The position numbers were made by a program, and so were the translations under genes. From a virus (taxonomy: Duplodnaviria > Heunggongvirae > Uroviricota > Caudoviricetes), in the IMG/VR virus record IMGVR_UViG_2609460125_000016, positions 1 through 16,185 of that record: a DNA stretch of 16,185 bases, one strand, 5' to 3'. Under the pieces are notes generated by a model. That model had not been told where the DNA came from, made no database searches, and saw only the letters and a list, made by a program, of their open reading frames with translations. Positions 1 to 10,282 of this stretch are shown here, piece after piece (within the stretch, counting starts at the first letter, position 1; the number at the start of each line of letters is the position of its first letter).

Positions 1-183
1 TTAACTCTCAAGCCTCGAGCCAAGCCTGTTTCAGAAGCCCCGTTACCTGATGAACCCATTCAGGGACACGCTGTTGCTGCAAATATCTCTGCGATTGAAA
101 AGCAGATGGAAGCGGCAGCAAACAAAGGGGATGTAGAGACGTACCGCAAGCTCAAGGCGCAACTGAATAAAGGAATTCGATAA
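1..183 (+). CDS. Scaffolding protein (P22 gp8-like), C-terminal fragment; 5-prime end lies outside the window
   Basis: Frame-1 translation ends ...[21 protein letters not shown] at TAA 181-183, overlapping the coat ATG as TAATG. The C-terminal tail resembles the coat-binding end of P22-family scaffold proteins (from memory). Synteny: immediately upstream of coat. Confidence 0.75.
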
Positions 184-1477
184 TGGCATTAAATGAAGGT
201 CAACTGGTCACGTATGCTCTGGATGAAATCATCGAAACCGTCCAGAACCTGACGCCAATGGCGTCCAAAGTGACAAAATACACCCCTCCGGCAGAATCCA
301 TGCAACGTTCAAGCAACACCGTGTGGATGCCTGTTGAGCAGGAAGCGCCAACTCAGACTGGCTGGGATTTAACTGGAAACGCTACCGGGATTCTGGAGCT
401 CTCCGTAAAATGCAACATGGGTGATCCGGATAACGATTTCTTCGAGCTTCGTGCAGATGACCTGCGTGATGAGCGTTCTTACCGTCGCCGCATCCAGGCA
501 TCCGCCAAAAACTGGCGAATAACATTGAGTCAGCGATTGCCAAACAGGCAACTGAAATGGGCTCGCTTGTTGTTCACGATACCCGCGCAATTGGTCCATC
601 TACTGGCCTGTCTGGCTGGGATTTTGTGTCTGATGCAGAGCGCCTGATGTTCTCCCGTGAGCTAAACCGCGATATGGGCATCAGTTACTTCCTGAACCCT
701 GACGATTACCGCAAAGCAGGCCGCAACCTGGTAGATGGTGACATCTTCGGGCGCGTTACTGAAGACGCGTATCGCAACGGTACTATTCAGCGTCAGATTG
801 CTGGCTTTGATGAAATTCTTCGCTCACCGAAACTTCCGGCAGTTACCAAGTCAACCGCTACTGGTGTAACTGTTTCTGGTGCGCAGAAGTTTAAGCCGCA
901 GGCATACACCCTTGATACCGATGGTAACAAAGAGAACGTCGACAACCGTGTTGCAACGGTGACCGTATCCTCCACCACCGGATTTAAGCGCGGCGACAAA
1001 ATCAGTTTCACTGGTGTGAAATTCCTGTCTCAGATGGCGAAGAACGTGCTAACTGATGATGCTACTTTCTCAATCACCCGTGTGATCGATGGTACTCACA
1101 TCGAAATCACGCCGAAGCCGATTGCACTGGATGACGCGTCACTGACAAAAGAAGAGAAGGCTTACGCTAACGTAAACACCTCTCTTGCTGATACCACTAC
1201 GGTAAACGTTCTGAACGTGGCAACAACCACCGCTAACGTGTTCTGGGCTGATGACTCAATCCGCCTGCTGTCTCAGCCGATCCCGGTAACCCATGAACTG
1301 TTTGCTGGTATGAAAACGTCTTCCTTCAGCATTCCTGGCATTGGTGTTAACGGCATCTTCGCAACGCAGGGTGATATCAACACTCTGTCTGGTAAGTGCC
1401 GTATTGCTGTGTGGTATTCAGCATGTGCTGTACGACCAGAGGCAATTGGTGTTGGTCTGCCTAACCAGACTGCGTGA
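183..1477 (+). pseudogene. Major capsid (coat) protein, P22 gp5-like, interrupted by a 1-nt frame disruption in an A5 run at 507-511
   Basis: ORF 183..647 ([18 protein letters not shown]...[10 protein letters not shown]) and ORF 557..1477 (MGSLVV...[10 protein letters not shown]...GVGLPNQTA*) are consecutive segments of one P22-type coat protein in two frames. The frame changes inside gccaaaaactggcg; one extra A would give ...[23 protein letters not shown]... in a single frame. Confidence 0.85.
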
Positions 1478-1484
1478 TAACCAG

Positions 1485-1508
1485 AGGGAGCTTCGGCTCC
1501 CTTTTTTA
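1485..1508 (+). terminator. Rho-independent terminator just downstream of the coat gene
   Basis: GC-rich 7-bp stem agggagc / gctccct with a ttcg tetraloop (1485-1502), followed directly by a T5-6 run. Confidence 0.7.
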
Positions 1509-1521
1509 TCTGGAGACAAGC

Positions 1522-1776
1522 ATGACACACATGATCTTTCGTCATGGCGACATGAAGAAATGGAAAGGCGTTGGATACGACTTTGAAATCGTGAAAGCCG
1601 AAGAGCTTCAGGAATATCTGGATGCTGGCTGGTTTGCACATCCTGATGATCTTCTGAAGGATGTTGCAGAGCCAGATCCAGATCCAGAGCCAGAGCCAGA
1701 GCAAGAAGAAAAACAGCGTAAAAAGCCTGGTCGAAAACCTAAGGCGGCAGCAGATGAACCTGACAACGAAGGGTGA
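1522..1776 (+). CDS. Small acidic hypothetical protein (84 aa) with a [10 protein letters not shown] low-complexity segment and a basic C-terminal tail
   Basis: ATG at 1522 preceded by GGAG (1512-1515) at good spacing. [41 protein letters not shown]...[34 protein letters not shown]. Sits between the coat terminator and gp4 and overlaps the gp4 start by 23 nt. I do not recognise a known function. Confidence 0.55.
1665..1706 (+). repeat. Tandem hexanucleotide repeat (NCMAGA, about 7 units) inside the small ORF
   Basis: tgcaga gccaga tccaga tccaga gccaga gccaga gcaaga read directly; encodes (E)[12 protein letters not shown] in the ORF frame. Confidence 0.9.
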
Positions 1777-2254
1777 TTTAGTTCTTGCGGCATTACGTAA
1801 GCTCGGTGTGGCATCAAATGCCACGTTAACCGATGTCGAACCGCAGTCCATGGAAGATGGCGTCAACGACCTTGAAATGATGATGGCTGAATGGCTTGGC
1901 GGTGATGTGTCACCTGGTATCAACGTTGGCTACATTTTTGCTGATGCAGATGTCGCTCCAGATCCGGGAGATGAGCACGGATTATCAAATAACGCTATAA
2001 ATGCCGTCATTTTCAACCTTGCCTGCCGCATTGCTCCAGATTATGCGCTGGAAGCGTCAGCAAAACTTATAACGACTGCCAGATACGGGAAAGAGCGACT
2101 CGTCAAACTGTCTGCAATGGACAGAGCAAAAGCCGCTAAATGTAAGTCAGGTTATCCAAACCGTATGCCTGTTGGTAGCGGTAATCAGTTGGCGAAGTGG
2201 AACGGTTGGAATTACTTCCATCGGAAGGAACCTTGCGATAACGGGAGCGAATAA
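1754..2254 (+). CDS. Head completion / tail accessory protein, P22 gp4-like
   Basis: Translation from ATG 1754: [47 protein letters not shown]...[17 protein letters not shown]..., matching the P22 gp4 N-terminus as recalled ([29 protein letters not shown]). Synteny after coat. Confidence 0.85.
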
Positions 2255-3672
2255 TGCCGATTCAGCAACTTCCGCTTATGAAAGGTGTCGGCAAAGACTT
2301 TAGAAACGCCGACTATATCGACTATCTGCCAGTGAATATGTTGGCTACACCCAAAGAAATCCTGAACAGCAGCGGATATCTTCGCTCATTCCCGGGCATT
2401 GCCAAACGCTCTGATGTAAACGGCGTATCGCGCGGAGTTGAGTACAACATGGCGCAGAGTGCTGTTTATCGCGTGTGTGGCGGCAAGCTCTACAAAGGCG
2501 AAAGTGAAGTCGGTGATGTTGCCGGAAGTGGTCGCGTATCAATGGCGCATGGTCGAACATCTCAGGCGGTAGGCGTTAACGGGCAACTGGTCGAATACCG
2601 CTATGATGGCACGGTTAAAACCGTCTCAAACTGGCCTGCAGACAGCGGGTTTACGCAGTATGAGTTAGGTTCGGTTCGTGATATTACGCGCTTACGTGGG
2701 CGTTATGCGTGGTCAAAAGACGGTACTGATTCATGGTTTATCACTGACCTTGAAGACGAATCGCACCCTGACCGCTACAGCGCACAATATCGCGCAGAAT
2801 CGCAGCCTGACGGCATCATCGGCATCGGAACATGGCGAGACTTCATCGTCTGCTTTGGTTCATCAACGATTGAATATTTCTCCCTGACTGGTGCAACCAC
2901 TGTTGGTGCCGCGTTGTATGTCGCACAGCCATCGCTGATGGTGCAGAAAGGCATTGCCGGAACTTACTGCAAAACGCCGTTTGCTGATTCCTATGCGTTT
3001 ATCAGCAATCCGGCAACAGGTGCGCCGTCTGTATATATCATCGGCTCCGGTCAGGTATCACCAATCGCCAGCGCGAGCATTGAGAAAATACTACGCTCCT
3101 ACACTGCTGATGAACTGGCTGATGGCGTGATGGAATCGTTGCGGTTTGATGCGCATGAGTTACTGATTATCCACCTTCCGCGCCATGTTCTCGTGTACGA
3201 CGCATCTTCAAGCGCCAATGGTCCGCAATGGTGTGTGCTGAAAACAGGTCTGTATGACGATGTGTACCGCGCTATCGACTTCATTTACGAAGGCAATCAG
3301 ATAACGTGCGGCGATAAGCTGGAGTCCGTGACCGGGAAATTGCAATTCGACATCAGCAGCCAGTACGACAAGCAACAGGAACATCTTCTGTTTACTCCGC
3401 TGTTCAAAGCGGATAACGCCAGAGTGTTCGACCTTGAGGTTGAATCGTCAACTGGCGTTGCTCAGTACGCTGACCGCCTTTTTCTCTCTGCAACCACTGA
3501 CGGCATAAATTACGGTCGTGAGCAGATGATTGAGCAGAATGAACCGTTCGTTTACGACAAACGTGTTTTGTGGAAGCGAGTCGGGCGCATCAGGAAAAAT
3601 GTCGGCTTCAAATTGCGCATTATCACGAAGTCACCAGTCACTCTGTCTGGCGCTCAGATAAGGATTGAGTAA
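2254..3672 (+). CDS. Tail accessory / packaged-DNA stabilisation protein, P22 gp10-like
   Basis: 472-aa ORF starting [49 protein letters not shown]..., near-colinear with P22 gp10 as recalled. RBS gggagcgaataATG; TAATG overlap with gp4. Confidence 0.9.
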
Positions 3673-4520
3673 TGGCGGATTCGAATCTCAATGTGCCGGT
3701 AATCATTCAGGCTACACGGCTCGACACATCAGTCCTTCCACGCAATATCTTCTCGCAGTCGTATCTGCTTTACGTTATCGCACAGGGCACTGATGTTGGT
3801 AACGTGGCTAACAAGGCCAACGAGGCCGGGCAGGGCGCTTATGACGCACAAGTCAGGAACGATGAGCAGGATGTGATTCTGGTCGATCACGAAATTCGAC
3901 TGGCATCAGCTGAAGCGAAGATACAGGACCACGAAACAAGGATCACTAACGCAGAAGCAGCGATAGTCAGCCTTGACTCACGATTAACGACAGCAGAAAA
4001 CGATATTGATTATCTGACGGATGAAGTTGTCGCCATTCAAAACACGCTCTCAGACCATGAAACGCGCATCGATGCTCTTGAGTATGCCACTACTCGTAAG
4101 AAATCAGAGGTTGTTTACTCTGGCGTATCAGTCACCATCCCGACAGCGCCGACTAACCTTGTTAGCCTGCTGAAAACGCTCACGCCGTCATCCGGGACGT
4201 TGGCACCATTCTTCGACACTGTTAACAACAAGATGGTTGTGTTCAACGAGAACAAAACCTTGTTCTTCAAGCTGTCGATCGTCGGGACGTGGCCCAGCGG
4301 AACCGCCAACAGGTCAATGCAGCTAACCTTTTCCGGCTCTGTTCCTGATACGCTGGTCAGCAGTCGTAATGCGGCGACAACAACCGACAACATCCTGTTA
4401 GCTACGTTCTTCAGCGTGGATAAAGACGGCTTTCTTGCCACAAATGGAAGCACGTTAACCATTCAGTCAAATGGTGCGGCGTTTACTGCCACAACCATCA
4501 AGATAATCGCGGAGCAGTAA
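3672..4520 (+). CDS. Tail needle protein (gp26-like N-terminal domain) with a divergent, probably knob-type C-terminal domain
   Basis: N-terminus [68 protein letters not shown] matches the P22 gp26 N-terminus as recalled, followed by a heptad-like coiled-coil segment. The C-terminal ~140 aa is unlike the P22 gp26 tip and resembles the knob-bearing needles of Sf6/HK620-type phages. Confidence 0.8.
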
Positions 4521-4975
4521 TGATTCAGTTCAAACCAACGCGAAACATCGACCTGATCGAAGCAGTCGGAAATCACCCTGACATTATTGCCGGGAGCAAC
4601 AACGGTGATGGATACGACTACAAGCCTGAATGCCGTTACTTTGAGGTTAACGTGCACGGTCAGTTTGGCGGCATTGTTTACTATCAGGAGATTCAGCCGC
4701 TGACATTCGATTGCCACGCCATGTACCTGCCAGAGGTTCGTGGATTCAGCAAGGAAATCGGGCTGGCGTTCTGGCGATACATTCTGACTAACACCACCGT
4801 TCAGTGCGTCACATCGTTCGCTGCACGCAAATTCCGCCACGGGCAGATGTACTGCGCAATGATTGGCCTTAAGCGTGTAGGGACCATCAAGAAATACTTC
4901 AAAGGCGTGGATGACGTGACGTTTTACAGCGCCACACGCGAAGAACTAATCGACTTCCTGAATCACGGGAGATAG
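4520..4975 (+). CDS. Virion assembly protein at the P22 gp14 position (assigned by synteny)
   Basis: 151-aa ORF with TAATG-type coupling to the needle gene, located between the needle and the ejection proteins as gene 14 is in P22-like phages. I cannot confirm sequence identity from memory. Confidence 0.5.
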   Translation: MIQFKPTRNIDLIEAVGNHPDIIAGSNNGDGYDYKPECRYFEVNVHGQFGGIVYYQEIQPLTFDCHAMYLPEVRGFSKEIGLAFWRYILTNTTVQCVTSFAARKFRHGQMYCAMIGLKRVGTIKKYFKGVDDVTFYSATREELIDFLNHGR

Positions 4976-4977
4976 CC

Positions 4978-5673
4978 ATGTTATATGCATTTAAGCTGGG
5001 CAGAAAACTGCGCGGCGAGGAACCTTATTGCCCTGAAAAAGGCGGGAAAGGTGGCAGTTCTGATAAAAGTGCAAAGTATGCCGCAGAAGCTCAGAAGTAT
5101 GCCGCAGACCTGCAGAATCAGCAGTGGCAGACGATCATGAAAAACCTTGCTCCGTTCACGCCACTCGCTCAGCAGTACGTATCACAATTGCAGAATCTTT
5201 CCTCTCTTCAGGGGCAAGGTCAGGCACTTAACCAGTATTACAACTCTCAGCAGTACAAAGATCTTGCTGGTCAGGCTCGCTATCAGAGTCTGGCGGCAGC
5301 GGAAGCAACAGGTGGATTGGGTTCCACTGCAACCGGTAATCAGTTAGCAACAATCGCACCAACGCTTGGTCAGCAATGGCTATCTGGTCAGATGAACAAC
5401 TACCAGAATCTGGCAAATATTGGTCTTGGCGCACTGCAAGGTCAGGCAAACGCCGGGCAGACATATGCCAACAACATGAGTCAGATTTCGCAGCAAAGTG
5501 CGGCTCTTGCCGCTGCTAATGCCAATAAACCATCAGGTCTTCAGACAGCAATTAGCGGCGGAGCTTCAGGGGCTATGACTGGCGCTGCTCTTGGCTCTAT
5601 TGTTCCAGGACTTGGCACTGGATTAGGTGCGGCAATTGGCGGCGGACTTGGCCTGCTTGGCTCGTTGTTTTAA
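4978..5673 (+). CDS. Ejection (internal virion) protein, P22 gp7-like
   Basis: 231 aa, N-terminus MLYAFKLGRKLRGEEPYCPEKGGKGGSS resembles P22 gp7 as recalled. Q/N/G-rich middle and Gly/Ala-rich hydrophobic C-terminus; size and position match. Confidence 0.75.
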   Translation: MLYAFKLGRKLRGEEPYCPEKGGKGGSSDKSAKYAAEAQKYAADLQNQQWQTIMKNLAPFTPLAQQYVSQLQNLSSLQGQGQALNQYYNSQQYKDLAGQARYQSLAAAEATGGLGSTATGNQLATIAPTLGQQWLSGQMNNYQNLANIGLGALQGQANAGQTYANNMSQISQQSAALAAANANKPSGLQTAISGGASGAMTGAALGSIVPGLGTGLGAAIGGGLGLLGSLF

Positions 5674-5682
5674 GGGGTAATC

Positions 5683-7089
5683 ATGGCTACTTGGCAAGGA
5701 ACAAACGGCGGATTGTTGGCTGGTATCGGCGGCGTCAACTCAAACGCTCCGAGCGTAAATGACATCGGCAATACGCTTCAGCTTATCAGGCAGAACAATG
5801 ATATTGAGCGTTCAGGCGCTAACAATGTTGGGCTGACGGCTTTGCAAGGTCTTTCAGGTATTGCGGGTGTTTTTCAGCAGGAAAAGCAGGCTCAGCGGCA
5901 GAAAGAATTTCAGCAGGCGTACGCTAATGCTTATGCGTCTGGTGATCGCGGTGCTTTGCGTCAGTTGGCTACTGAATATCCAGACCAGATTGAATCCGTT
6001 CGTAAAGGCATGGGATTCATTGATGAAGACCAGCGCAATTCCATCGGTACCTTAGCGGCTGGCGCTCGCCTTGCGGCATCGTCTCCAGAAGCGATGCAAT
6101 CATGGCTGCAAAACAACGCCAAGGAACTGGTGCGCGTCGGCGTTGACCCTAATAACGTTGCTCAGATGTATCAGCAGAACCCTTCAGGATTTGGTGAGTT
6201 TGTTGATCACCTTGGAATGGCCGCGCTTGGTCCGATTGATTACTTCAATGTTCAGGACAAGATGGCTGGTCGTGAAATTGACCGAGGCAGGCTGGCAGAG
6301 ACAATCCGCAGCAATCAGGCTGGCGAGGCACTTCAGGCGAGAGGGCAAAACCTTTCCTATCAGTCAGCAATGACTGGGCACAATATCGCAGCACAACGCT
6401 TGGCTCTGGATCAGCAAGAGTTCGTGTTTAAGATGCAGCAAGCGCAGGAAAAGGCTCAGCAGTTGATTAGCGAAGCACCTAAGCTGTCAGTAAACATGGA
6501 AAAAGGCATCGAGACGGCTGTAAACAATGCCACAGCATCATCAAACTCAGCCAATTCTATGAGTGCGCTTGCTCAACAGTTCAGAGCAGAAAAACCAACG
6601 ACAGGTTTGTTCGGTAACGCACAGAACATGTTCGCAAAACTTACCGGAAGCGATACAACATTGCGTGATTTGCGCATTCGCCAAAATGCCCTTGTTAACA
6701 GTCAGGTCCTTAAATTCCTACCTCCCGGCCCAGCAACGGATAAAGACGTTGAGATCGTTCGGCAGGGTGCGCCAACTGACATGGATAACCCTGAGACGGT
6801 CGCAAGATGGCTTGATGCAATGGCAAACCTTGAGCGACGAAACGCGCAGTTTAATGAGTTTAAAGCCGAGTGGATGAGCGCGAATGGCAACCCTGGACAA
6901 TCGCGTAATGGCGGTCAGATATTGGGGTTGGATGTTAAAAAAGGTGAATCATTGGGGAGTGCCGTTAAGCGGTATATGTCAATGAATACTGACGCAGCGC
7001 CAGCACAAGATTCGACACCTTCAGGAGAACCACGGAATCAGGTTGGATCATATACCTCAAAATCAGGCATTCAATTTACGGTGGAATGA
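5683..7089 (+). CDS. Ejection (internal virion) protein, P22 gp20-like
   Basis: 468 aa (P22 gp20 is of similar length, as recalled); RBS aaggggtaatcATG; lies between the gp7-like and gp16-like genes. Confidence 0.7.
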
Positions 7090-9350
7090 TGAAAGTAACT
7101 GCAAACGGTAAGACATTTACCTTTCCTGATGGTACAAGCACCGAAGATATTGGCACCGCCATTGATGAGTATTTTGCTGGTCAGGCTGTTCAGCAACAAA
7201 CAGTTAATCAGGCCAATAATGCACCAACACGGGAAGAACCCTCATTGATGCAACAAGCTGGCGATTGGCTCACTGGTGGTCAAAGTGCAGGGCAAATTGC
7301 AGAGCAGGCTGGTCGTGGTCTGGTAAACATACCATTCGACGTATTACAGGGCGGCGCAAGCCTGATTAATGCAATCAGTCAGGGGCTTGGTGGGCCAAAA
7401 GTATTGGATGATGTCTATCGTCCAGTCGACCGACCGACAGATCCTTACGCGCAAGCTGGAGAGTCAATAGGCGGTTATCTTGTTCCTGGAGCAGGTGTAA
7501 CTGGAAACATGGTCATTGGTTCTCTCGCTGACGCGGCGAATCAACGGGGTGATTTTGCCGAAAATGCCGCTATTAATGCCGGACTTAACATTGCTACGCA
7601 TGGCCTGATAAATGGCGTTACCCATGGTGTTCGTGGTGCATCAAATATAATTAGTGGCAATAAAACATCTGCACAGAGAGCGACCACTGCGGCAACAGAA
7701 ACATCACCATTCTCCGGTACTGCGCCAACAGAAACATCACCATTCTCCGGTGATGCCGCTGCAGCAACAAATCCTGCGGTTCATGCCGCAGAGGCAAGAG
7801 CAGCACAAGGTGTACCAATGACGCCTGCGACGAGGGACCCAGAGGAGGTCGTCCGCACAGTAGCAGCACAAAAAAGGCCAAATCTCGCTTCATCGCTTGA
7901 TGAACTAGATATCAATCCTCAGGCTGAAGTTCTGGAGTCTGCTGAAAGGCTTAATGTTGATTCATTACTCCCTTCACACTTTTCCGGGAACGAGCAATAC
8001 AAGGCAGTTGAGCAAGCAATCAAGTCCCGTGCGGGTTCTGCTCTACGGGTGCAGGAAAATGAAGCAATCAGGCAACTAGCACAGGGCGCGGGGGAGATAA
8101 TTGATCGCGTTTCCGGTGCAAAAGATGCTCTTGGTATGAGCGACAAGTTTATTGATACGATCAATGGAAGAATGTCTGCGCTGATGAAACGAAGCGACCA
8201 GCTTTATCGCAATGTTGAAAAGGCGATGCCTGCAGGTGCAAAAATTGATGCGCCATCAACAAGGTCAATGCTCAAACAGGTGGCAGAAGATCTTGGCGGG
8301 ATGAAAAACCTTGACCCTATTGAAAAGAGAGTCTTTCGGGCAGTTAATCCAGGCAAGAACGGCGCATTAACTTATGCAAATCTCAATAAGCAACGACGAC
8401 TTGTTGGTGATGCACTTCATAAGAATTCTGGACCATATAAAGATGCTGATCGCGCTGCTTTATCGAGGCTTTACGGTTCGCTCGCCGATGATCAAAAGGC
8501 GGCGCTGTCAGAGACAAATGCATTACGTGATTTTGAAGTTGCTCAGAGGCTTGTTCAGATGCGAAAAAGCATGGAAGAGCAAATGATTAATCTAACTGGC
8601 AGAACGCTGAACGGTGATGTTTCTCGCAAAGCAACTACAGCACTACAGGCAATGTCGAAAGGCGATGCCAAAGGATTTCGTGAATTGATGCAAAACACGC
8701 CGTCCAGGAAGCTAAGAACCGAGCTACTGGGAACAGGTCTTCGGGATATGCTTTCGAACGGAAAACGTGGCGCTGATTTTAATCCTGCAGGGTTTGCTGA
8801 CTGGTATCAAAACATGTTAGCAAACGGGCAGATGCGCAATCTTGCCAGACATTTACCAAAAGAGACTATGTCAGGTCTGAACGATGTATATAAGGTCGCA
8901 AAGGCTATCAAAGATGCAAAATCTTACGAGATAACTACAGGAAGACTAAACGAGTTCGTCAAACGGTTTAATCGCGTCACTGCGGCAAATGAATTTGTTG
9001 CTAACCATGCCCAACGCATTGGCACTGCGGTTGGTTCAACTGTGTCAGGACCGTTCAGTGCAGTAGGTGCTGTTGCTGGGTCAGAAATTGGGGCAAAAGT
9101 CGCCAGCAAAATCAGGGCGATGGGCGGCGCTGCATCAATGGAATCTGCAGAAAAGCTAATTAGCTCACCAGAATTCCAGAAAGCAGCAAGACTGGCAGTA
9201 AGACAAGCACCAGAAAGCATCGTTGATACAACTGTAAGACGCTCTTCTGCTTGGCGATCGTTTTACAACTCACTTCCAGAATCAGATAAGAAAACCATAT
9301 CAAGGCTAGGCATCATGTACTGGATGAACAGTGATGATAACCAGAAGTAA
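7086..9350 (+). CDS. Ejection (internal virion) protein, P22 gp16-like, enlarged with an internal low-complexity region
   Basis: 754-aa ORF overlapping the gp20-like stop (ATGATG start at 7086). Last large gene before the immI position, as gene 16 is in P22. Ala/Thr/Ser/Gly-rich segments including an 11-aa tandem duplication. Confidence 0.65.
7686..7751 (+). repeat. 33-bp in-frame tandem duplication (2 units, 32/33 identical) inside the gp16-like gene
   Basis: actgcgGcaacagaaacatcaccattctccggt followed by actgcgCcaacagaaacatcaccattctccggt; encodes [11 protein letters not shown] then [11 protein letters not shown]. Confidence 0.95.
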
Positions 9351-9367
9351 CGGAAAGCCACGGATGG

Positions 9368-9628
9368 TTAGTTGCAGTCTTTTTTATATAGCTCTTTGAG
9401 AGTATCAAAGACAATTTTCTTAACCATATCGGATTGTTGGTCTGCAATACGCTCTGCATCGTCAATGTAAACAGATGCAGAGCTTTGTTTAGCCAATGAT
9501 TCTTCAATCGCTGCAATTATCTCTGAGTTCAGCGACCTGTTATTCATCTTCGCACGCTGCTTAATTTTCGCGTGGAGTTCATGCGGAAGTCTCAAGTGAA
9601 ACTGCGCCTCGTCGTATTTGCTGTACAT
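9368..9628 (-). CDS. mnt: Mnt-like ribbon-helix-helix repressor (Arc/MetJ family)
   Basis: Minus-strand ORF from ATG (rc) at 9628 with AAGGA RBS: MYSKYDEAQFHLRLPHELHAKIKQRAKMNNRSLNSEIIAAIEESLAKQ...DDAERIADQQSDMVKKIVFDTLKELYKKDCN. Aligns over its length with P22 Mnt as recalled (...NGRSMNSELLQIV...NDAERLADEQSELVKKMVFDTLKDLYKK). Same position and orientation as mnt in P22 immI. Confidence 0.75.
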   Translation of the reverse strand: MYSKYDEAQFHLRLPHELHAKIKQRAKMNNRSLNSEIIAAIEESLAKQSSASVYIDDAERIADQQSDMVKKIVFDTLKELYKKDCN

Positions 9629-9759
9629 CCTTGATGCCTCACCAATTGGGTGGAATGGCATCGTAACTTACTGGATAAATACTCAATAGTACCATTTCGG
9701 TATGCAATCACATCATGGTTGCATCATATCATTCGTCTGGAGCAATGAAATGTCAGATA
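9629..9759 (-). promoter_or_regulatory. Putative mnt promoter/operator region (intergenic, between the HNH gene and mnt)
   Basis: 131-bp non-coding gap directly upstream of mnt containing short inverted motifs (atgcaa...ttgcat flanking catcat repeats). No P22 O-mnt-like palindrome recognised. Assignment is positional only. Confidence 0.25.
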
Positions 9760-10260
9760 TCACCTACTCAACAGATGGTCAGCAACCATGTTTGCTGCCT
9801 TATAAGCTATAGCCGCTTCATCAATGGTGTTGAATCTCCCAAGGGTTATGTTTTTACCTGAGACATTTATCTGAGCTTGCCATTGATTTCTGGCTTGACA
9901 GAAAGTTACCCCCTTGATTCCAGCATTGCTATTTCGAGGTCCGACATTTAATGCATTTACGACTCTGCTGACATCCCTAAGGTTTGAGATTGCGTTATTT
10001 CTTCTGTTTCTATCAATGTGGTCAATCTCTTGTTTGGGCCATTCGCCATATACATACAGCCAGGCAAGTCTATGTGCAAAATATCTTACGCCATCAATAT
10101 TAATTGCGTTATATCCATAAGAAATTGTGCCAGCAACTTTCCCAACAGCACCTCTGGCGCTTAATTTCTTTTTCCAAGTGAAAATTCCTGTTTCTTTATT
10201 GTAATCGAGAACCTCCATAAGGCGCTCCCGAGTTACTACCTCGTGACGTCTCTTACTCAT
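9760..10260 (-). CDS. HNH homing-type endonuclease with C-terminal AP2-like DNA-binding domain
   Basis: Start ATG (rc) at 10260 with RBS ggagaaaataATG. Protein MSKRRHEVV...[32 protein letters not shown] (HNH motif) ...[45 protein letters not shown] (AP2-like). The in-frame ATG at 10302 lacks an RBS. Confidence 0.8.
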
Positions 10261-10282
10261 TATTTTCTCCGGAATGTTTATT

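Follow-up and report, generated by a model that had tools for sequence, protein, structure and literature searches.

The window analysed here is a stretch of 16,185 nucleotides (nt), positions 1 to 16,185 of the IMG/VR virus record IMGVR_UViG_2609460125_000016, from a virus of the Caudoviricetes. It covers the late region of a phage or prophage of the P22-like type (Lederbergvirus) and contains head and ejection genes, a Mnt-like repressor gene, an open reading frame (ORF) for an HNH endonuclease, the tailspike gene, a gtr-type O-antigen modification cluster and the start of an integrase gene. The gene under study is that of the HNH endonuclease, hereafter hnh1, which is located directly in front of the tailspike gene and on the opposite strand. 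An earlier reading made from the sequence alone (the sequence-only reading) had placed the HNH start at 10260 and the tailspike start at 10283, divergent and 22 bp apart, and these coordinates are confirmed. The locus contains the following features.

9739-9764, plus strand: displaced original tailspike start as judged from the Sf101 and L006 alignments, with the Shine-Dalgarno (SD) sequence GGAG at 9739-9742, ATG at 9750 and codons 1-5 (MSDIT)
9750-9812, plus strand: vestigial ORF of 20 codons headed by the old start and entering the HNH gene from its 3' end in antisense, from translation
9760-10260, minus strand: HNH-AP2 endonuclease gene, 166 amino acid residues (aa), with ATG at 10260 and stop TGA at 9760-9762
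about 9793-9921, minus strand: AP2-like DNA-binding domain, residues 114-156
about 9952-10083, minus strand: HNH motif, residues 60-103
9765-10300, no strand: mobile cassette of 536 bp, which Sf101, IME10 and L006 are without
10261-10282, no strand: divergent spacer of 22 bp with back-to-back ribosome-binding sites, read from the sequence
10283-10300, plus strand: substitute tailspike start, ATG and codons 2-6 (MPEQLY), replacing the ancestral MSDITA or MTDITA
10283-11995, plus strand: tailspike gene, 570 aa (Pfam Head_binding, 4e-62), with the head-binding domain to about 10621 and then the receptor-binding domain
10294-10322, minus strand: candidate sigma-70 promoter of the HNH gene from a relaxed scan, inside tailspike codons 4-14
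10301-10440, plus strand: apparently co-converted tailspike DNA travelling with the cassette, ending in the window between 10361 and 10440

The 166-aa protein matches the Pfam family HNH_3 (E=2e-16, 59.7 bits against a cut-off of 24.8) and PHROG_99, 'HNH endonuclease', at 7e-63. Its match to Pfam AP2 (E=3.6e-6, 27.6 bits) is under the gathering cut-off of 33.3, and many of its homologues have a precomputed PF00847 match. An AlphaFold model was built with 50 homologues (predicted local distance difference test, pLDDT, 88.5) and searched with Foldseek. For the residues up to about 105, the top match in the Protein Data Bank (PDB) is I-HmuI (1u3e), with probability 1.0 and a root-mean-square deviation (rmsd) of 3.5 Å over 96 columns, at an E-value of only 4e-3. 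Residues from about 115 to 160 match the plant AP2/ERF domains of TEM1 and AtERF1 with probability 1.0 and an rmsd of 1.4 Å over about 40-45 residues. The start at 10260 is backed by a GGAG SD sequence located 6 nt before the ATG (the reverse complement of CTCC at 10267-10270), and also by the conservation of residues 10-20 among homologues; some RefSeq records put the start at an internal Met. The label of the gene in GenBank and RefSeq is already 'HNH endonuclease'.

The nuclease half has its best structural and sequence match in I-HmuI of Bacillus phage SPO1. In the window protein the catalytic motif D80-H81...N89...N93-L-R is complete, and it aligns with the D-H...N...N metal-finger residues of I-HmuI. 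Among the 50 homologues D80, N89 and N93 are invariant, while H81 is found in at least 90%. The gene for I-HmuI lies in a group I intron of a DNA polymerase gene, and the enzyme has other DNA-binding modules and nicks one strand of its target. In contrast, the window gene is without an intron and its DNA-binding module is AP2. The protein can be assigned by sequence and model to a known family of free-standing HNH-AP2 homing endonucleases, with cleavage as its predicted activity. This identity had been proposed in the sequence-only reading, and the HNH_3 and PHROG_99 matches, the fold model and the complete set of catalytic residues agree with it. The same reading had named mutation of the catalytic residues as evidence that would speak against the proposal; the residues were looked at and are unmutated. 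An HNH protein associated with the terminase, as in cos phages, was also considered and rejected, since the gene lies between immI and the tailspike gene, far from the terminase, and is missing in about 97% of close relatives. P22-like phages package their DNA by headful.

The arrangement of the locus becomes clear when it is aligned with relatives that have no HNH gene. Positions 9203-9764 align at 97% identity to the HNH-less phage Sf101, and the alignment runs through the annotated tailspike ATG of Sf101 (ATG + 15 nt); homology restarts inside the tailspike gene. Because the Sf101 alignment crosses its own ATG, the codons ATG TCA GAT ATC ACC at 9750-9764 represent the stranded ancestral tailspike start. 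The remnant 9739-9764 is identical to the tailspike start of HNH-less Sf101 and of E. coli prophages, and 20 HNH-less loci in which mnt lies upstream (mnt context) start with ATGTCAGATATCACCGCA. On these alignments, the HNH gene is an insertion after codon 5 of the ancestral tailspike ORF, and the ORF at 9750-9812 may be considered a fossil left behind the old start.

The cassette consists of the HNH ORF minus its stop codon, the divergent spacer and the substitute tailspike start with six codons. Its right border is fixed by the HNH-less locus L035, which is identical to the window from codon 8 on. The only cassette-specific tailspike codons are ATG CCA GAA CAA TTA TAC. A TAC triplet is found at both ends of the cassette (9765-9767 and 10298-10300), so that the exact borders are ambiguous by 3 nt; the two triplets could be microhomology from the original insertion or could be due to chance (1 in 64). 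The HNH stop TGA is located outside the cassette, as the reverse complement of TCA inside the remnant ...ATC ACC. In loci where ant lies upstream (ant context), the remnant has ATT in place of ATC (ATT ACC), and the HNH stop is therefore TAA.

The spacer also contains the weak SD sequence of the tailspike, GGAA at 10271-10274. The tailspike ATG at 10283 is the choice of both the PGAP and the Kapi1 annotations, and a further in-frame ATG is present at 10274. The cassette start differs from the ancestral one at 10 of the 12 bases of codons 3-6. When the start linked to the homing endonuclease gene (HEG) is compared with empty-site alleles, it differs at 10291-10300 and at 27 more positions up to 10360. 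For annotation and phage engineering this means that these tailspikes begin at 10283 with a non-canonical N-terminus, while the upstream 'start' at 9750 is a fossil.

The old start is intact and has a good SD sequence, and this could also be explained by a self-splicing intron, in which the remnant and the tailspike body are exons and the mature tailspike begins with MSDIT. Joining 9764 to 10298 would produce MSDITYNVVVS, equal in length to the ancestral MSDITANVVVS, and HEG-containing introns are known in phage structural genes (PMC10448857). However, the HNH ORF is antisense and takes up 498 of the 536 bp, the in-frame ATG of the cassette is conserved in all variants, and the right end of a second variant, hnh2, described below, is quite different. 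A search of Rfam over 9300-10800 at E<=1 found no group I or group II intron and only a chance microRNA match. The RNA folding of the HNH region is no better than that of shuffled sequences (z = -0.16). We regard an intron as extremely improbable, and it was eliminated on the Rfam result, the lack of excess RNA structure and the antisense ORF. An intein was eliminated as well, since the HNH gene is on the strand opposite to the tailspike.

The mobility of the cassette was assessed by comparing the window with 16 other loci, namely Kapi1, one E. coli chromosome and 14 IMG/VR contigs. These loci show 0-4 mismatches in the cassette (at least 99.3% identity, 17 loci in all), and the next 100 bp to its right have 1-4 mismatches. 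Beyond about 10400-10440 the divergence is 11-17 per 100 bp, and to the left of the cassette divergence starts at once. A block extending 60-140 bp to the right of the cassette is common to all HNH+ loci and is flanked by sequence of the recipient type, which is a population signature of co-conversion. At least 12 receptor-binding domains unrelated to each other are found in the 17 loci.

Near-isogenic genomes give the limits of this block in the window. Between the window and Sf101 there are 38 mismatches in 10286-10360 and none in 10361-10578, and the left flank is 95-100% identical. This near-isogenic comparison makes the window an Sf101-like genome with a foreign patch extending from 9765 to a point within 10361-10440. 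Compared with Kapi1 and L009, the window has no more than 2 mismatches as far as 10410, and mismatches become dense from 10441 on. The cassette occurs in two upstream contexts, behind mnt (as in the window) or behind ant (as in Kapi1), with the remnant alleles ATGTCAGATATCACC and ATGACAGACATTACC, respectively, and an unchanged junction. Codon 5 is ACA in 28 of 28 HNH-less alleles of the ant context, while in the HNH+ remnant it is ACC. The left crossover was therefore within 2-3 nt of the junction, and a crossover so close to the junction suggests that the break was made at this spot.

The link between the start and the gene is complete in the collections searched. Tailspike starts of the type MPEQ[L/S]Y are accompanied by the HNH gene in 16 of 16 loci from IMG/VR and in the single locus (1/1) among GTDB representatives. 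No such start was seen without the gene in IMG/VR or the GTDB representatives, and about 60 loci with other starts are without the gene. The polymorphism concerns the presence or absence of the cassette at one precise site, which is filled in 17 or more loci and empty in Sf101, IME10, L006 and about 60 IMG/VR loci. The exact HNH protein is found in 1710 collection blocks, and the tailspike adjoins it in 10 of the 10 places read. These ten places add an endosialidase-type receptor domain to those of the 17 loci. In locus L127 an identical cassette is located ahead of a 981-aa tailspike with endosialidase domains (K1-capsule type), and therefore the head-binding module with its cassette combines widely with receptor domains.

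These comparisons allow us to propose that the HNH gene is probably a free-standing HEG cassette whose specific site is the 5' end of the tailspike gene in P22-like phages. The enzyme, with its I-HmuI-like HNH nuclease domain and AP2 DNA-binding domain, would be expressed from a promoter opposite tailspike codons 4-14. Its target would be the HNH-less tailspike alleles of the MSDITA or MTDITA type, around codons 4-7, which would be nicked or cut when HNH+ and HNH-less genomes share a cell, whether two phages co-infect it or one infects a lysogen. Repair by recombination with the HNH+ copy would then insert the cassette together with 60-140 bp of downstream DNA. The cassette's own start would no longer be a target, because of the base differences in codons 3-6 given above. 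The essential tailspike gene is restored by the ribosome-binding site, ATG and six codons of the cassette. The element could persist in this way without an intron or an intein: it would bring a new start, hide its promoter in those codons and borrow its stop from the displaced start.

The same site has been occupied by other endonuclease genes. A different HNH-AP2 gene, hnh2, encodes a protein of 169 aa that is 32% identical to hnh1 and is present in 15 complete E. coli genomes (for example, in L004 at 3061-3657, and in L026, L027 and L087); it was not found in any deposited phage genome. Its junction, ...ATCACC/TAC, and its borrowed stop are the same as for hnh1. The hnh2 cassette has the left TAC of the hnh1 cassette but not the right TAC; the gene is followed by an 87-bp spacer containing TTGTATAAT and then by a start of the HK620 type (MTDSINA). 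Another variant with 81% identity, hnh1b, has its junction one codon earlier, and its reading frame continues through the remnant to a different stop. No match to hnh1b was found among complete E. coli genomes.

Relatives with 67-84% identity occur in Salmonella, Citrobacter, Mixta and Serratia, where they are divergent from a Head_binding tailspike and separated from it by 21-33 bp. They end inside genus-specific remnants of the tailspike start (MSDITAN, MADDIT and MADTI), and the tailspike starts beside them are changed to MSDSIIP, MTDSIIA, MTDNITA and MTDNIIP. More distant family members (below 50% identity) occur in thousands of unrelated phages, the scattered pattern expected of a HEG family. 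As far as can be judged from these sequences, the P22-like tailspike site has been used repeatedly by at least three endonuclease lineages in several genera. The sequence-only reading had described the gene as at least a selfish element and had allowed that its presence at unrelated loci would speak against a tie to the tailspike. Every examined relative with at least 67% identity is located at a tailspike start, which fits a selfish, mobile gene associated with the 5' end of the tailspike gene.

Starts of the MTDSINA type are also found without an HNH gene, in L035, L070, L081-L083 and phage HK620, and they resemble the cassette-linked MTDSIIA and MSDSIIP. In these HNH-less loci, normal upstream signals are joined directly to a cassette-like N-terminus. 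It is a speculation that they are scars of endonuclease loss, produced by deletion between duplicated ATGAC(A/T)GA starts.

In P22-like phages the tailspike gene closes the late operon and is transcribed by read-through from upstream, in P22 itself from late and ant transcripts. The sequence-only reading had concluded that the 22 bp between the two starts leave no room for separate promoters. This conclusion is not upheld, since the tailspike gene is read through from upstream and a candidate HNH promoter is located inside tailspike codons 4-14. It consists of a -35 element TTGGTT (reverse complement of 10317-10322), a 17-nt spacer and a -10 element TATAAT (reverse complement of 10294-10299), and lies 33 nt before the HNH ATG. 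The candidate -10 falls in the cassette, complementary to tailspike codons 4-6, and the candidate -35 falls in the co-transferred tract, complementary to codons 12-14. The arrangement is kept in hnh1b (TTGGCT/17/TATGAT) and in L088 (TTGGTT/17/TATAAT), and ATTATA is also present in several other cassette-linked tailspike starts. TTGGTT-17-TATAAT may thus be regarded as a candidate promoter of the HNH gene. In the RNA sequencing of a Kapi1 lysogen, the HNH gene Kapi1_066 is not on the list of undetected genes, which is weak evidence (PMC12922286).

A promoter of the host sigma-70 type would need no phage factor. This, together with the Kapi1 lysogen result, would also be expected of a prophage-borne weapon, that is, a nuclease that cleaves the tailspike gene when an HNH-less P22-like phage enters the cell (superinfection exclusion) and for which homing is a by-product. 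The gene is located in the immI/sieA neighbourhood, the home of the exclusion genes of P22-like phages, and there is a SIEA Pfam match in L122. However, relatives are already excluded by lysogens through repressor immunity and O-antigen modification, and the co-conversion signature indicates transfer of DNA into recipients and not destruction alone. As the principal role of the gene we consider this quite unlikely, but such a role is compatible with homing. The role in exclusion or host takeover mentioned in the sequence-only reading is speculative.

The frequency of the cassette was estimated in 5426 complete E. coli genomes, of which 869 contain a total of 935 P22-like head-binding sequences. 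The site is occupied in 30 of these 935 loci (about 3%), 15 with hnh1 and 15 with hnh2. The ratio of nonsynonymous to synonymous substitution (dN/dS) between two hnh1b copies is 0.065. Between hnh1 and hnh1b dN is 0.136 and dS is saturated, so that no ratio can be given. These values point to an HNH protein that is under purifying selection and has been kept working for a long time. Decayed copies are of three types, with one copy each: a 3' end swapped for unrelated prophage DNA, a frameshift in the AP2 domain and an N-terminal truncation.

The low occupancy and the occurrence of truncated or frameshifted copies could indicate that the gene is a passive hitchhiker, no longer self-promoting, and that the cassette was moved by the ordinary homologous recombination of P22-like modules. 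P22-like genomes are highly mosaic, and neither their receptor-binding domains nor the contents of immI vary in step with the HNH gene, which is in line with this explanation. It is nevertheless rather unlikely in our opinion. Purifying selection on the protein is strong and its catalytic residues are invariant or nearly so. Three HNH lineages are found at the same or an adjacent nucleotide position. In addition, the shared block covers very little DNA, and the left crossover hugs the junction, which argues for breaks at the site and not for random crossovers.

Several observations do weaken the case for a homing cassette. We infer the homing step from population patterns, and the heavy recombination of P22-like phages could spread a linked block by ordinary means. 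The occupancy of about 3% is low for an efficient homing element, and decayed HNH copies exist (L135, E. coli 30COLEC, 2459-2911; proteins P0015 and P0019). All ant-context copies have one remnant allele, so there may have been only one transfer between the mnt and ant contexts. The candidate promoter is a weak-consensus match, with 3 of 6 positions in the -35 element; a stricter promoter scan of 9300-10700 listed no site ahead of the HNH gene, and the promoter-like sites that it did find were fewer than in shuffled sequences.

It was also proposed in the sequence-only reading that the tailspike is mosaic about 330 bp downstream of its start and that the HNH gene might be linked to this. The break itself is real: homology to other phages stops at 10620-10630, 338-347 bp into the tailspike gene. 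This is the boundary of the head-binding and receptor-binding domains, and it is present in HNH-less phages too. The link to the HNH gene does not hold, as the co-transferred DNA ends 60-140 bp in, and the HNH-linked block stops 200-280 bp before the mosaic junction. The possibility that the HNH gene drives receptor-domain swapping was rejected for these reasons, the shared block being too short and the same junction being found in HNH-less phages. The HNH finding leaves the mosaicism of the tailspike receptor domains unexplained.

It is useful to place the cassette among known homing systems. Free-standing proteins in which an AP2-like domain comes after HNH_3, about 160-170 aa long like the window protein, are encoded by HEGs of phages, cyanobacteria and ciliates, and often by several genes per genome in T5-like and RB16-like phages. 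These other HNH-AP2 relatives are at most 50% identical to the window protein, whereas the window clade is tied to codon 5 of P22-like tailspikes. The T4-like seg and mob genes (SegG, SegF, MobE) encode stand-alone nucleases beside essential genes, with intronless homing in mixed infection, co-conversion and a patchy distribution. The window gene is similar in being a stand-alone nuclease gene by an essential gene and patchy among close relatives. However, the T4 genes sit between genes, while the window cassette is inside the ancestral ORF and replaces the gene start. The T4 enzymes are also GIY-YIG proteins, or HNH proteins with a zinc finger, of lytic phages, while the window phage is temperate and its relatives are mostly seen as prophages.

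HEGs that split phage genes are known from MobE in the nrdA gene of Aeromonas phage Aeh1 and from T4 gene 39/60 with mobA, where two polypeptides reassemble. As in the window, a HEG without intron or intein is located within a coding sequence and the function is retained. The Aeh1 and T4 splits keep both fragments, while in the window the 5-codon piece is lost and a new N-terminus comes from the cassette.

Proteins combining HNH and AP2 are recognised as a HEG family (Magnani 2004, as cited in PMC10448857), and the 'IPA-HNH' genes of vibriophage ICP1 form a divergent branch of the HNH-AP2 family (PMC10448857). In the tape-measure introns of ICP1, different HNH-3 genes about 30% identical are found at one site with a nearly unchanged host gene (PMC10448857), which is similar to the turnover of hnh1 and hnh2, 32% identical at one site. 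The ICP1 genes are in spliced introns, whereas hnh1 and hnh2 are free-standing and antisense to the tailspike. Neither the enzyme family, nor free-standing homing, nor the turnover of HEGs at a single site is new (PMC10448857). In the literature searched, no description of the gene, of its codon-5 tailspike association or of the start-replacing architecture was found, and the Kapi1 papers never mention it. The new features would be a free-standing endonuclease gene inside an essential ORF, made harmless by replacing the first six codons and the translation signals, and the population evidence for repeated use of one P22-like tailspike site. The natural near-isogenic HNH+ and HNH- phages Kapi1, Sf101 and HK620 provide a test system for homing in temperate phages. 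To our knowledge, homing has been studied far less in temperate phages than in T4-like lytic phages.

A broader scheme combining these elements can be put forward tentatively, and it is possible but not probable as a whole. In this scheme one HNH-AP2 lineage would have resided for a long time at one codon, as a cassette that replaces the gene start; the MTDSINA starts would be resistant scars, and the nuclease of a prophage would cut incoming relatives. The long residence is suggested by the saturated dS and by the spread over at least five enterobacterial genera.

The left neighbour of the HNH gene lies outside the cassette and has its place taken by ant in other HNH+ phages.

9368-9661, minus strand: Mnt-like ribbon-helix-helix repressor gene (Pfam Repressor_Mnt 8.6e-15, Arc 1.1e-14)

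In P22, mnt normally controls arc and ant. The Mnt-like repressor gene of the window is on its own, without arc and ant, and the same lone-mnt arrangement is found in Sf101, where the homologue is annotated as 'partition protein ATPase', an apparent mis-annotation.

The public scaffold L125 (GCA_000754175.1) has the same gene order as the window and is 100% identical to it over the whole tailspike gene (10283 to about 11960). Downstream of the tailspike, the region 12062-14616 on the minus strand encodes a 421-aa protein without a Pfam match, followed by genes of 305 and 120 aa. The L125 counterparts of the last two match Glycos_transf_2 and GtrA, respectively. The arrangement suggests an O-antigen modification cluster of the gtrABC type whose third gene is serotype-specific. 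On the plus strand at 7086-9350, a 754-aa protein without a Pfam match at E<=0.01 is encoded at the place of the P22 gp16-like ejection protein. The corresponding proteins of related prophages match Phage_P22_gp16 and SLT, and the 754-aa protein may represent a divergent module.

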